Shown: positions 15,001 through 18,000 of the stretch, in pieces
Layout: every line of letters begins with the position of its first letter
Position numbering within the stretch: position 1 is the stretch's first letter
NCBI GenBank assembly: GCA_965243135.1
Contig: OZ251539.1
Span: 224,001 to 288,000 of the forward strand
Source of the DNA: Alphaproteobacteria bacterium
Lineage (GTDB): Bacteria; Pseudomonadota; Alphaproteobacteria; MPNO01; UBA830
Length of the DNA stretch: 64,000 nucleotides
Reading direction: 5' to 3'
Program-made: the position numbers

Positions 15001-18000
15001 GCCGTCGGCGAAGCGCGCGACGGCGCGAGCGGTTCCGCCGGAGAAGGGGTCGACATGACCGTAACGATACGTTATATCATTACGAATAGTTGCCAATCTC
15101 ACGGAAGGACCACCGAGGAAGCCGGGAACCTTGGCGACCGTCGCTGCGGCAGCCCTCCATTCGCCTGCCATGGCGCAGGACTCCTTCGAGGAGCGCCTCG
15201 CGGAGCGGTGCCATGATTCTTGACGTCGCCGGCCGGCGCGGTACACTGACGTGGAATTCTTCACGGGGCCTCTTCACGGGGCCTCTTCACGGGGCCTCTT
15301 CACGGGGCCTCTTCACGGGGCCTCTTCACGGGGCCTCTTCACGGGGCCTCTTCACGGGGCCTCTTCACGGGGCCTCTTCACGGGGCCTCTTCACGGGGCC
15401 TCTTCACGGGGCCTCTTCACGGGGCCTCTTCACGGGGCCTCTTCACGGGGCCTCTTCACGGGGCCTCTTCACGGGGCCTCTTCACGGGGCCTCTTCACGG
15501 GGCCTCTTCACGGGGCCTCTTCACGGGGCCTCTTCACGGGGCCTCTTCACGGGGCCTCTTCACGGGGCCTCTTCACGGGGCCTCTTCACGGGGCCTCTTC
15601 ACGGGGCCTCTTCACGGGGCCTCTTCACGGGGCCTCTTCACGGGGCCTCTTCACGGGGCCTCTTCACGGGGCCTCTTCACGGATCAAGAGGACCCGTTCG
15701 ATGACGATGTACAAGCTATGTCTGGCGCTGGTCTGCGGCGCTGCGCTGGCGCTGGGCGCCTGCACCGAAACCAAGACGGTGCGCGTCCCCGACCCGGAGG
15801 CACTCGCGGCCGAGCGGCAGAAGACGGCCGCGGCCGAGGCCGCGTTGAGCGCTCTCCGCGCCTCGCTGGCCGAGGCTCAGGCGGCGTTGGGGGCGACCAC
15901 CGATCCCGGGCAGCGCGAGGCGGCCGGCGCCGTGGTGGAAGAAGCCCGGCAAAATCTGGAGGTTTTTCGCGAACGTCTGGCGGCGCAGCCCGACAGCGGC
16001 GCGAAGACGGCGGCCTCAACGGCGCTGACGGCAGTCGATACCGCGCTGGAGACGGTCGCCGACGTGCTGACGGCGGCCGACGCGGCGCTTCCCTCCGGGG
16101 GGCCTGTGGCGCTGGCGAGCATGCACACGACGCTGGACCGGGCGCAGGCCGCGCTGGACGACGCGCAGACGAAGCTGACGGCGGCGCTGGATGCGAACCC
16201 CACTCCGGAGATCCGGACCTTGCTGCTGCAGGCCCAGGTCACGCTGTCCACGGCCCAGATTTCCCTGGTGCCGCCGCTCCGTCAGGAACTGGCGCAGGCC
16301 GAGAGCGCCGCCGCGAAGCACGAGCGCGACGCCGCGGAGCAACGGGCCAGGGCCGACGCGTACGACCCGCGCGTATCCCTGGCCGTTGCGCTCGAACCGC
16401 GGGAGCCGCGGTTCGTGCCCAGAGGCGAGGCGGACATCGCGCGCACGCCGCGCACCGACACCGGAGAGACAGGCTGGACGAAACTCGCCATCGCGACGGA
16501 CGGCGTCGCCTGGGCTGCGGGCAAACGGGTCGGGGCCGCGAGCGGCGGCCTCGCCGCGACGGACGAACTGCCGCTGCGCGCGGTGACGCTGCGCGCCGTG
16601 GGAAGGCATCCCGTCCGGATCCAGGGCGACGACGGCACGCCGACGTCCTATTCCAACACCGACGGCGTGGTGACGAGTTCGCTCCAGCTGTCCGCCGACA
16701 GCGCGACGCTGAAATTCGGCGGCGAAGGCTTGGTCTATTACGACATGCAGAGAACCTTCGACTACTTCAATGACGCCGACGGCACGCCCGACCACAACTC
16801 TTGGTGGAGGTACGGCCCGGACGGGAAGCTGGGCGACGCGAGCGCGGCGCAGGGCGACGCGATAACCGCCTCCCACGCCAGAGACCTGGGCCTGGAGGCG
16901 GCGACCGGGACGCTGACGGCGGATCAGGCGACCGCGCTCCAGGGCTACGAGATGGACAACGCCGGCGCCTGCTGGAGAGATCCTCTCTCCGATTGCGGCG
17001 ACTGGGCCCACGACGACCTGACGATCGCCTTCGGCCAACCGTCGCAGTCGCCCCACGGCGATCCGTCGTATTATTGGAAGGTGCGGGCTCCGTTCACCCA
17101 AGCGCAGCACGATACGGGCCTTCCGCCGAACCACGTCGAGGGGTCTGGCGACGGCCGGTCGCAGGACCTCGGAACCTACGAGCTGTGGCTGTCGAACTAT
17201 GGCGGCCTCGACGACGTCGGCGACGACGCGCACCGCTACCTCGAATACGCGGCCTACGGCCTGTTCACGTTCTTCGACAACGTCGTGCAAACGCCGAACT
17301 TCCTCCGCCCGCATGCATTCGCCTTCGGCTACGACGCCTTCAGGGACGCGGACGGCATGAGGACGACGGACGTCGCGACGTCGATCGCCGCCACGTTCAA
17401 GGGCCGCACCATGGCGCGCGCGCTGATCAATGGCGGGAGCGAAACCCACGTCACCCTGAGCGGGGCGACGCCGCTCAGGGGCGACGTCACGCTCAACGCC
17501 TGCATCGGCGGCAGCGGCTGCACCGGCGACGGCATTCCCGCCGACTCCAACAAGATCAGCGGCATGATCTCCGGCCTCGAGGAACTCCGCCACGACGGGG
17601 TGTGGATTCCGTACCGCCCTGCCGCCGGAGGCATCCCGATGGCGGAGGGCGAGATCGCCGCCGACGGCAGCTTCGGGGGCAAGCTCGATCATCCGCGAAT
17701 CGCTGATGGCACCCTGAATACATGGGACTTCGACGCCGACATCCGGCCGGGTCAGTACTCTGCTTCCAAATACGGCGGCAATCTCTACGGTCCCAGGAAC
17801 GGCTTGGAAGCCGCGGGCTGGTGGCACATGCAGAGCGACCACCGGGGTCGCGCGCTCCGCAGTTCGCTCATAGGCAGTTTCGGCGCCAGGTGCACGGAGG
17901 GATGCGATTAGCGCGGAATGAGCATGGCGAGTTCGCAAGGCCGAACCGTCAAGCGCGACCTCCACGCCGCCGCTCCCAACTGCATCACGACCCGGAACGC

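Follow-up and report, generated by a model that had tools for sequence, protein, structure and literature searches.

A perfect 13-nt repeat as the leader of surface-protein genes in uncultured Proteobacteria: a candidate for hypermutable control of translation

A tandem array of a perfectly repeated 13-nt unit separates a promoter-like site from the ribosome-binding site of a lipoprotein gene in an uncultured alphaproteobacterium, and the same arrangement is found before surface-protein genes of carriers that are only distantly related. We propose, with a probability of about one half, that the array is a hypermutable 5'-leader repeat, an amplified anti-Shine-Dalgarno (anti-SD) arm, that varies the translation of these genes. 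The reading is built on the anatomy of the leader, on its conservation, and on an excess of predicted SD pairing over control leaders.

Anatomy and cargo of the leader cassette

The locus lies in the window, as we call the whole stretch of 64,000 nt that was analysed (contig OZ251539.1, positions 224,001 to 288,000). Its features, in window coordinates, and the arrays of the whole genome, in contig coordinates, are the following:

15220..15247, plus strand: sigma70-like promoter, TTGACG-16 nt-TACACT, with the -10 at 15242-15247 (consensus match only)
15248..15259, plus strand: 12-nt junction gacgtggaattc, from the -10 to the first full unit (direct reading)
15258..15682, plus strand: perfect 13-nt tandem array (TRF, direct reading, genome scan)
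15686..15696, plus strand: SD segment AAGAGGACCCG, with the SD core GAGG at 15688-15691 (hairpin predictions)
15701..17911, plus strand: lipoprotein gene, 736 codons and stop (direct reading, N-terminus)
17165..17908, plus strand: C-terminal beta-rich domain, about residues 489-736 (structure model and fold search)
contig 239260-239675, plus strand: own array of 32 units (genome scan)
contig 5220829-5221283, minus strand: own array of 35 units (genome scan)
contig 5368692-5368808, plus strand: own array of 9 units (genome scan)
contig 5459008-5459124, minus strand: own array of 9 units (genome scan)

Promoter, junction, array, SD segment and ATG follow one another within 15220-15703. TRF describes 15258-15682 as an array of period 13 with 32.7 copies, 100% matches and a score of 850, and direct reading agrees: 32 full units TTCACGGGGCCTC occupy 15260-15675, with a partial unit TC ahead of them and a partial unit TTCACGG behind them at 15676-15682. 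The promoter site matches its consensus at 9 of 12 positions; the survey's finding of one promoter-like site was confirmed, and its expected count of 0.0 has to be corrected to 0.1, the value obtained in shuffles. Transcription would start within 15248-15259, which would place the array about 5 nt into the RNA. A scan of the genome (6,103,318 bases, one contig) returned the four perfect arrays that had been reported, namely the window array and three others, and the complement of the unit has no copy outside the arrays of this genome. A single isolated unit is present at contig 3335683, and the other tandem repeats of the genome, with units of 26, 8 and 12 nt, were set aside as not belonging to the same class. 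As already claimed, no Rfam family matched the leader at threshold (best 18.9 bits, against a gathering score of 78), and neither the 13-mer nor its rotations were found in the published literature searched.

The position of the array between a promoter-like site and a ribosome-binding site, always in sense, was likewise upheld beyond this genome. A promoter site with at least 8 of 12 matches stands before 38 of the 49 scored arrays, and in 33 of these 38 the end of the -10 lies 10-12 nt from the first full unit (exactly 12 nt at 26 arrays), a spacing seen at 0.1% of random positions of the same loci. This geometry is constant over at least eight unrelated promoter sequences. Between the end of the array and the ATG there are about 25 nt, and the SD segment within them is complementary to the unit. 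The largest promoter family comprises 19 distinct sequences from four genomes; its conservation begins sharply about 50 nt before the array, with 0.9-1.1 bits per position inside the cassette vs 0.2-0.4 upstream, and this single family stands before at least five unrelated gene families. As read from these alignments, the array appears to be the body of a compact portable cassette, made of about 50 nt with a sigma70-type promoter, the repeat, and about 25 nt with the ribosome-binding site and start codon.

The window cassette precedes a protein whose signal peptide ends in the lipobox LGAC (LALGAC), with Cys21 encoded at 15761-15763; C21 and G19-A20 are invariant in an alignment of 12 relatives. 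In its structure model (mean pLDDT 60.7) residues 32-219 form long helices, and the blocks of the C-terminal domain mostly reach a pLDDT of 75-92. The 30 best PDB matches of a fold search with this domain all belong to the TbpB lobe/factor H binding protein/HpuA/PmSLP family (best 5kkx_A, E 2.1e-05, probability 1.00, TM to target 0.47), and on this model the domain has the handle-plus-barrel fold of surface lipoproteins. No TbpB/fHbp-type Pfam family was found in the window protein at E up to 0.1, and PDB sequences searched with a profile of the lipoprotein family gave nothing below E = 0.27; the protein of locus D, another array locus of this genome, matches TbpB_B_D at 7.5e-20 and also FHBP_C. 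Lipoproteins of this type usually have the gene of their Slam translocator (PF04575) as a neighbour; the genome contains five matches to PF04575, one of them directly downstream of the locus D gene, and none was found among the neighbours of the window gene.

A sense ORF starts 0-82 nt after the array in 49/49 arrays with downstream sequence, and the sense-upstream position claimed in the survey's finding therefore stands; the cargo is wider than the lipoproteins and one autotransporter named there, including YadA-type adhesins and a GT25 glycosyltransferase. Lipoproteins account for about 30 of the 49 downstream products, judged from N-termini, while Pfam assigned 33 downstream proteins to Autotransporter (5), YadA head plus anchor (2), TbpB_B_D (2), Glyco_transf_25 (1) or no family (23). 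Judged from these matches, the cassette appears to serve genes of surface or secreted proteins beyond lipoproteins, comprising autotransporters, trimeric adhesins and an LPS glycosyltransferase. Gene classes of this kind are typical of phase variation, and both a perfect repeat between -10 and SD and a cargo of surface functions are features of simple-sequence-repeat contingency loci.

Spread and constancy of the unit

The counts of 47 foreign stretches in 17 genome_contigs records and of 4 metagenome stretches with the exact unit (L094, L096, L103, L120) were both reproduced, and all 47 foreign arrays were inspected; one genome holds 11 array-bearing stretches and another 9. When only the core is fixed, 63 metagenome stretches are recovered, with more than 25 different 5-nt spacers. 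These other-spacer arrays are mixed, in that TTTAC and ACCAC share the layout and many arrays of 3-4 copies do not, and they were left out of the member count. Within the order, the 2 of 78 genomes obtained earlier with a degenerate pattern become 3 of 78 in a search for core arrays, this genome counted, and the array was found in none of the 25 other genomes of the window's family; four genomes of the same genus lack it. The plasmid collection gave no match to the array, and viral contigs gave 0 stretches. The unit is identical in carriers differing by 6-21% in 16S rRNA, and a gene segment is 93% identical between two carriers with 78.8% 16S identity, which fits the horizontal sharing of the cassette that had been suggested.

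The arrays might also be mainly portable homology: many loci share identical sequence of as much as 455 bp, through which promoters and 5' gene ends would recombine, so that surface-protein genes would be shuffled or switched and the cassette would spread within genomes as well as between them. The single promoter-array family before at least five unrelated gene families, with its sharp boundary near -50, the accumulation of arrays in two genomes and the 93% gene segment would suit that role, as would a locus with two cassettes in tandem, the first of them followed by a truncated autotransporter start. Homology requires neither a fixed distance from the -10, nor sense orientation, nor complementarity to the SD, and it would be an addition to a regulatory role and not its replacement; as the main explanation we hold it to be highly unlikely.

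The unit itself seems constrained. Loci A and B of this genome are 7.7% different over 3 kb of flank and gene, and their 67 units are all identical. A search that kept only GGGG and the period constant gave GGGGCCTC in each of the 151 matches listed from five genomes; their spacers differ (TTCAC, TCCAC, TCAAG, TCAAT), and TTCGC, TACAT and TTTAC occur in the same layout. The conservation of the core is partly ascertained, since either the core or the G run was kept constant when spacer variants were sought. That the repeat expanded selfishly or neutrally and has no function, or that it is an artefact of assembly, is already disfavoured and seems very improbable to us. Quasi-palindromic units may slip easily, and metagenomes contain many short arrays of the same core in unrelated contexts, including one with spacer CGTGC downstream of an opposite-strand gene, as neutral expansion would have it; strict position, orientation and promoter distance, the complementary SD segment, and a unit that is unchanged while flanks diverge by 8% or more all tell against this rival, as does the recurrence of the same unit in assemblies made independently, one of them with a short-read contig terminating in the array (L015).

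Predicted pairing and the role of copy number

The 8-nt core GGGGCCUC contains the anti-SD sequence CCUC and is predicted to pair both with itself and with the SD segment, which repeats the unit in inverted form, though imperfectly (AAGAGGCCCCG would be its exact complement). Folding reproduced the row of 8-bp hairpins described previously: each hairpin joins two units through the core, by 8 bp including 2 G-U, at a predicted -13.2 kcal/mol, and the entire window leader reaches -255.2 kcal/mol (z = -10.65 vs shuffles). Occlusion of the SD had been attributed to three loci only, and in this respect the survey's finding was too narrow, since the fold predictions give a hairpin between the last unit and the SD segment at each of the four own loci and in all 25 distinct leaders tested. 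Its predicted energy lies between -15.2 and -23.6 kcal/mol, with a median of -17.8, and in each of the 25 it surpasses unit-unit pairing in stability. In the window leader this hairpin has -16.2 kcal/mol and belongs to the minimum-energy fold at n = 4, 5 and 32, the predicted probability that SD and array pair being 0.99 for five units and 0.87 for six. An SD-masking RNA thermometer of the ROSE or fourU kind, which would have a weak and heat-labile hairpin, was rejected for hairpins of this stability, with no Rfam family at threshold.

The predicted pairing exceeds that of controls. In a swap test, in which 150 SD-bearing leaders from the same genome were placed on the same array, the SD-array pairing probability was 0.90 (5 units) and 0.70 (6 units) for natural leaders vs 0.42 and 0.22 for controls, with a Mann-Whitney p of about 1e-9 that overstates the difference because the leaders, which fall into some 15 families, some clearly related, are not independent. 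The motif GAGG-N0-2-YCC occurs in 22 of 36 distinct leaders, compared with 3.4% of 1134 controls. Duplex energies with a two-unit probe showed a modest shift (mean -21.1 kcal/mol for leaders vs -18.6 for controls, p = 5e-05), and this test was replaced by the motif count and the swap test because GC-rich controls pair with anything. The leader positions that face the GGGG of the unit hold C or U in 91 of 100 cells (64 G-C, 27 G-U), and such C/U changes would be neutral for RNA pairing only. Two-sided covariation was seen in 0 of 6 pairs over 25 leaders, because the unit never varies within an array. For the same 25 leaders RNAalifold gave a weak consensus of -1.97 kcal/mol because MAFFT shifts registers, and only its per-pair counts were used.

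This arrangement leads us to infer where the transcript starts, that units slip at a given locus, and that expression is affected. The unit would be an anti-SD arm that pairs better with the GAGG-YCC(C) segment than with itself; in the RNA, units would pair with one another and one of them, normally the last, would close a 10-15 bp hairpin over the SD and keep translation low. Slipped-strand mispairing would be frequent in so perfect a repeat and would add or remove units; each change of number would make the masking of the SD tighter or looser, with a probable further effect on the stability or the completion of the long untranslated leader. Cells would in this way inherit differing and reversible expression of surface lipoproteins, autotransporters, adhesins and an LPS glycosyltransferase, from a contingency locus operating after transcription initiation.

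Closely related own loci carry 32 and 35 units, and three loci of one MAG, with nearly identical promoter and leader, carry 11, 6 and 4 exact cores, all the copy-number differences seen being those between paralogous loci or between different genomes. Each of two array-less paralogues of the window protein (38-39% identity) has, 34 nt ahead of its ATG, a G17 tract flanked by TTGCAT and TACGGT, and the genome contains about 27 runs of at least 15 G or C vs about 0.4 expected by our own calculation. These promoter tracts suggest, as an independent sign, contingency control of the family and selection for variability.

At equilibrium most leaders are predicted to keep the SD masked whatever the copy number (the mean probability of its being unpaired is 0.02 and 0.08), and therefore fold predictions alone leave the relevance of copy number unexplained. 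That masking would be natural if one hairpin alone repressed translation in a fixed manner until some factor or condition opened it, its 5' arm being incidentally prone to slippage and expanded, and copy number being selectively neutral and without effect on expression. The greater stability of the hairpin over the SD points the same way, together with array sizes from 3 to 35 units, none of them preferred, and a decayed locus with one unit. Such a repressor would have to accommodate a cargo of gene classes known for phase variation, lipoprotein paralogues with G17 promoter tracts, and a parity effect on SD accessibility predicted for several leaders; long perfect arrays at 50 or more loci, at least, with up to 455 untranslated nt, would be for it an unexplained burden, and we rate it as rather unlikely.

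The parity effect also allows a more specific form of the variable-translation reading, doubtful in our judgement and drawn from the fold models, in which the leader would work as an RNA 'abacus', a digital parity switch flipped by single-unit slips. Units would pair two by two as the transcript emerges; with an odd number, one unit would be left free beside the ribosome-binding site and would lock it, and with an even number all would be engaged, the site staying open long enough for ribosome loading. Such a plug-in cassette would confer the switch on any surface-protein gene downstream of it, across many lineages. Exact-core counts are odd in 33 of 54 arrays (p = 0.13), and in 38 of 54 once one-mismatch cores are added (p = 0.004, under a counting rule chosen after seeing the data).

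Control could also be exerted on transcription or on the DNA, through Rho loading, through R-loops or quadruplexes that stall the polymerase, or through a protein roadblock, with array length setting the fraction of full-length transcripts. The array always lies 3' of the -10 with its G runs in the sense strand (49/49), and no conserved start codon stands upstream of it in leaders of up to 455 nt. The unit holds 5 C vs 4 G in its 13-nt period; Rho primary sites bind YC dimers spaced about 11-13 nt, and Rho loading is disfavoured by the strong predicted structure of the leader (z = -10.65). A G-quadruplex-forming repeat was tried and rejected on model values: the G4Hunter score is 0.69, the usual threshold being about 1.2, and ViennaRNA with quadruplexes permitted keeps the hairpin fold, free of quadruplexes, at -27.9 kcal/mol per 4 units, compared with -15.4 kcal/mol for a quadruplex in a control with hairpins disabled. 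Hairpins in the DNA are weak (z = -1.7), a terminator-like site was looked for and not found, and a model of G runs or operators alone leaves the complementary SD segment and its C/U-only variation unexplained. Transcription of the repeat does matter in the hmw system of Haemophilus, as far as the cited account goes (PMC12721329); for the present arrays we consider action at this level unlikely.

Translation of the repeat itself, as an upstream ORF or an N-terminal extension that switches frame on and off because 13 is not a multiple of 3, was rejected as scarcely credible. All three sense frames are open through the array, and in the window an ORF from the GTG at 15251 is in frame with the lipoprotein gene and a second frame stops at a TGA overlapping the ATG. 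Against this, start codons between -10 and array are unconserved and the junctions differ among loci, those of own loci C and D having no start codon in their 12 nt; other candidate starts fall in or upstream of the promoter, copy number modulo 3 is without bias (22, 18 and 14 arrays), and a normal SD and a signal peptide follow the array in nearly all loci.

Known repeat systems and biological meaning

Phase variation by homopolymers in the promoter spacer, of the Neisseria and Bordetella type, concerns the same gene classes, and the G17 tracts of the array-less paralogues, between -35-like and -10-like hexamers, resemble it; the 13-nt array differs in that it cannot act through promoter spacing, because it lies downstream of the -10. 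The closest analogue is found in hmw1A/hmw2A of Haemophilus influenzae, where, as reported, the pyrimidine-rich heptamers (ATCTTTC)n of the 5'-UTR pair with a region rich in G, and expression of HMW1A is inversely proportional to repeat length (PMC12721329); cleavage of the hairpin by RNase III, needed both for expression and for repeat change, also belongs to a system of that type. Both systems place a perfect repeat between the promoter and the start codon, of an adhesin in hmw, where it is transcribed as leader (PMC12721329), and in both the repeats pair with a segment near the start, here as a prediction in 25/25 leaders and above controls. The present unit is an analogue and not a homologue, being 13 nt long, unrelated to ATCTTTC and also self-pairing; about one unit covers the SD, whereas ten repeats form the hairpin arm in the hmw account, and a single unit is common to many gene families and taxa.

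In Moraxella catarrhalis, AGAT repeats in the 5'-UTR of uspA2 set expression with 6-23 copies, and uspA1 has a poly-G tract, as summarized in PMC4679880. Their repeats also lie between promoter and start codon of surface-protein genes, but with units of 1-4 nt, in one species, and with no self-complementary anti-SD unit in the description cited. TAACTGA heptamers, with up to 43 copies in marine Beggiatoaceae, Cyanobacteria and Bacteroidetes, are in that same source proposed to have a translational role and to spread horizontally (PMC4679880). They share with the 13-nt arrays one identical unit, lying forward and close ahead of start codons, in environmental bacteria that are only distant relatives. 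As portrayed there, TAACTGA usually replaces the SD, ends 1 nt before the start codon and follows neither a gene-function pattern nor a fixed promoter, whereas the 13-nt array is followed by a normal SD and has surface cargo and an SD-complementary unit. In Helicobacter pylori, a G-repeat in the tlpB leader is described as the target of the small RNA RepG (PMC8295292). It is likewise a variable repeat of an mRNA leader, with graded, post-transcriptional control, but it combines a homopolymer with a trans-acting small RNA, and here no complement of the unit exists outside the arrays.

To our knowledge, repeat-based phase variation is known almost only from host-adapted pathogens, with units of 1-7 nt. 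In the present case a 13-nt unit is part of a complete transferable cassette of promoter, repeat and ribosome-binding site, which precedes the main classes of outer-surface proteins in uncultured Proteobacteria with up to 21% difference in 16S rRNA. The idea is directly testable because the cassette is short and modular. If copy number sets expression, contingency loci would count among the traits of environmental and symbiotic bacteria, the repeat would be an anti-SD element that looks designed and links a mechanism of DNA mutation to an RNA switch, and the cassette would become a marker for variable surface antigens in metagenomes.

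Tandem arrays in the leaders of probable surface-lipoprotein genes

The host genome is a single contig of 6,103,318 bases (65% G+C), and a whole-genome search with TRF found four 13-nt tandem arrays in it and no others. The window contains one of them, locus A (32 full units); the remaining three are locus B (35 units) and loci C and D (9 units each). TRF and direct reading both confirmed the survey's finding that perfect 13-nt arrays occur at these four loci. The features of locus A, in window coordinates, are as follows.

15220-15247, plus strand: sigma70-like site TTGACG-16-TACACT, the sole such site in 3.6 kb against 0.1 expected
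15258-15682, plus strand: perfect 13-nt tandem array (TRF: 32.7 copies, 100% matches, score 850; also read directly)
15686-15696, plus strand: Shine-Dalgarno (SD) segment AAGAGGACCCG with SD core GAGG, from sequence reading
15701-17911, plus strand: lipoprotein gene of 736 residues, ATG at 15701, lipobox LGAC, Cys21

The end of the -10 element is separated by 12 nt from the first full unit (starting at 15260); the final full unit ends at 15675 and is followed by a partial unit, the SD segment and the ATG. Just 5' of the promoter, a 70-nt unit is repeated 2.2 times (14844-14997, 98% matches), and related sequence lies upstream of locus C. The array contains no stop codon in any of the three sense frames: a long ORF from GTG 15251 enters the lipoprotein gene in frame (15251-17911), and a second one (15090-15704) closes with a TGA overlapping the ATG at 15701. 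Both were judged to be due to chance, since their conservation does not extend to loci C and D, and a translated repeat is unlikely from the start codons and modulo-3 counts examined. Elsewhere in the genome, a lone unit (contig 3335683-3335760) carries a hybrid A-type/D-type leader; a 72-codon ORF comes next, and beyond it no long ORF is present. By its sequence, this locus looks like a decayed cassette (promoter-like site, array and SD leader).

The locus D protein matches Pfam TbpB_B_D (7.5e-20) and FHBP_C, and a Slam-family gene (PF04575) lies directly 3' of its gene; its sequence-based designation as a surface lipoprotein is therefore well founded. For the locus A protein, no Pfam family was found, nor any match below E = 0.27 when its sequence profile was compared with the PDB. 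Its predicted model shows long N-terminal helices and a C-terminal beta domain, the latter mostly with pLDDT 75-92 (mean over the entire model, 60.7). The best 30 matches of the fold search were all TbpB lobes, factor H binding protein, HpuA, hemophilin or PmSLP (top match: E 2.1e-05, probability 1.00), and this predicted fold suggests a surface lipoprotein at locus A as well.

Across 3 kb of flanking and gene sequence, loci A and B show 7.7% divergence, yet their 67 units are all identical (67/67); the same 13 letters recur in arrays of other genomes. The whole-array variants found all alter the 5-nt spacer (TTCGC; TCCAC, TCAAG and TCAAT; TACAT; TTTAC and ATCAC), and the promoter-array-SD layout is unchanged in every variant whose flanks were read (TCCAC is not among them). 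Conservation of the 8-nt core is partly built into these results, because most variant searches fixed it; a search fixing only the G run and the period returned only GGGGCCTC cores among the 151 matches listed, from five genomes.

Predicted pairing of the unit with itself and with the Shine-Dalgarno segment

The core GGGGCCUC is self-complementary, allowing two G-U pairs, so that two units are predicted to form an 8-bp hairpin (-13.2 kcal/mol), an odd unit remaining unpaired. The predicted fold of the locus A leader comprises 15 unit hairpins and one over the SD (-255.2 kcal/mol, z = -10.65). The core also contains the anti-SD tetramer CCUC, and the segment flanking the SD lengthens the complementarity: in 25/25 distinct leaders, a hairpin of -15.2 to -23.6 kcal/mol is predicted between the SD segment and the last unit. 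Hairpins at the level of DNA are predicted to be weak. A quadruplex is disfavoured by two models.

The motif GAGG-N0-2-YCC is present in 22 of 36 distinct leaders; among 1134 SD-bearing upstream regions taken as controls from the same genome, its frequency is 3.4%. When leaders were swapped, the probability of SD-array pairing was 0.90 (5 units) and 0.70 (6 units) for the natural leaders, against 0.42 and 0.22, respectively, for 150 control leaders placed on the same array. Of the 100 leader cells facing the four Gs of the unit, 91 hold C or U (64 G-C, 27 G-U), an interchange that is neutral for RNA pairing only. These three controls show that the predicted SD-array pairing exceeds what any SD would give. 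The leaders group into about 15 families, related in part, and the p-values obtained for them are therefore too small, the direction being still consistent. Equilibrium folding predicts the SD to be masked at any unit number in most leaders, and an effect of parity in some leaders only. Odd core counts are slightly over-represented, at 33/54 arrays (p = 0.13), or 38/54 (p = 0.004) when one-mismatch cores were added, a counting rule chosen after seeing the data.

A promoter-array-leader cassette shared by distant genomes

A scan of one genome per species yielded 47 stretches from 17 records, every one a metagenome-assembled genome (MAG); together with the four own arrays, 51 were analyzed, two of them ending at a sequence edge. 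In all 49 arrays with downstream sequence, a sense ORF begins 0-82 nt past the array, mostly at 22-29 nt. By reading of the N-termini, about 30 of the 49 products are lipoproteins, and most of the others carry ordinary signal peptides. Pfam was run on 33 products, identifying five classical autotransporters, two YadA-type trimeric autotransporters, two TbpB barrels and one family-25 LPS glycosyltransferase; 23 of the 33 had no family match.

A promoter-like site (at least 8/12 matches) precedes 38 of the 49 arrays with enough upstream sequence. Its -10 element ends 10-12 nt before the first unit in 33 of these 38 (exactly 12 nt in 26), a spacing reached in 0.1% of cases at random positions of the same loci. 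The promoters belong to at least eight families with no obvious sequence similarity between them, and the spacing is therefore not merely inherited. In the largest of these families (19 distinct sequences, four genomes), conservation sets in abruptly about 50 nt before the array, and the genes behind it encode autotransporters, trimeric adhesins, a 1273-residue secreted protein and members of two lipoprotein families. Given this boundary and the varied cargo behind one promoter family, what evolves as a unit is the whole promoter-array-SD leader cassette rather than a gene together with its leader. One MAG stretch (L020, 7100-7720) holds two cassettes in tandem: the first has 19 units of spacer TTCGC, one of them with a 2-nt deletion, and precedes an apparently truncated autotransporter start; a second promoter and 4 canonical units come next.

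Among ten carriers and the window genome, 16S rRNA differs by 5.7-21.2%; identity between the window genome and the other carriers is 84.3-94.3%, and the two most distant carriers share 78.8%. Core arrays were found in 3 of 78 genomes of the window's order, the window genome included, in none of 25 other genomes of its family (four of the same genus), and in 2 of 401 genomes sampled evenly from the class. The window lipoprotein itself is present in 2 of the same 78 genomes. The pair of carriers at 78.8% 16S identity has in common a 1276-nt segment of a lipoprotein gene, at 92.9% identity. This patchy distribution, with near-identical cargo in distant hosts, fits horizontal transfer; the array was found in no plasmid or viral record searched. 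The survey had proposed a horizontally shared leader module tuning surface-protein expression: its anatomy and distribution are supported, and its function remains putative. Sequencing runs sharing 21-39% of sampled words with the flank at window 13500-15257 are labelled "sponge metagenome", which is no evidence of habitat, and the best-matching runs (61-81%) carry a coded organism name.

Homopolymer tracts, known repeat systems and the contingency reading

Beyond the window, G17 tracts at contig 4874797-4874813 and 5518271-5518287 separate a -35-like TTGCAT from a -10-like TACGGT, each 34 nt before the ATG of a gene that encodes a paralogue of the window lipoprotein and lacks the array. The genome holds 55 G or C runs of at least 10, and about 27 of at least 15, against some 0.4 expected from composition by our own calculation. 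In the window, a C14 (6426-6439) between TTTACC and TAAAAT lies 26 nt before ATG 6466, which is in frame with ORF 6052-10635, and thus near the 5' end of that ORF, which encodes a C-terminal autotransporter beta-domain (Pfam 2.5e-26). From its sequence, the tract resembles a homopolymer site of phase variation, placed either in the promoter or in the coding part. A C11 (47003-47013) between TTGACC/TTGAAA and TACAAT belongs to a family recurring at several genome sites, "GAAATTAGGGT...C-run...TAnnnT", and some seven places share a second context, "ggagcattccttttttcg - C run - gccatcgtgacaaaatccgcgcccgg". Other near-perfect arrays of non-triplet units, unrelated to the 13-nt unit, consist of a 26-nt unit adjoining a TATAAT-like site (contig 2559405-2559675, 10.4 copies) and an 8-nt unit, CGGGCTGG (contig 3222994-3223050, 7.1 copies). 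Imperfect repeats of 21, 66 and 87 nt with a high content of GCAGCAGC or CTGCTGC (window 19400-19668, 24286-24610 and 43027-43066) are probably coding repeats.

No occurrence of the 13-nt unit was found in the literature searched, and no description of it in that on 13-nt or anti-SD repeats in phase variation. Among studied systems, the nearest analogue is the Haemophilus influenzae hmw1A/hmw2A heptamer repeat, which forms part of the transcribed 5' UTR, pairs with a G-rich region and is cleaved by RNase III, expression being inversely proportional to repeat number (PMC12721329). Further parallels are the uspA2 AGAT repeats and the TAACTGA repeats common to marine Beggiatoaceae, Cyanobacteria and Bacteroidetes (PMC4679880). 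The present arrays differ from these in their 13-nt self-complementary anti-SD unit, in their fixed promoter-to-array geometry and in recurring, cassette-like, before many families of surface proteins in distant taxa.

We read the 13-nt array as a putative contingency device, whose copy number may affect expression, because its cargo belongs to classical phase-variation gene classes, because array-less paralogues carry G17 tracts in a genome with an excess of G/C runs, and because copy number differs among otherwise close loci (32 versus 35 units; 11, 6 and 4 cores).
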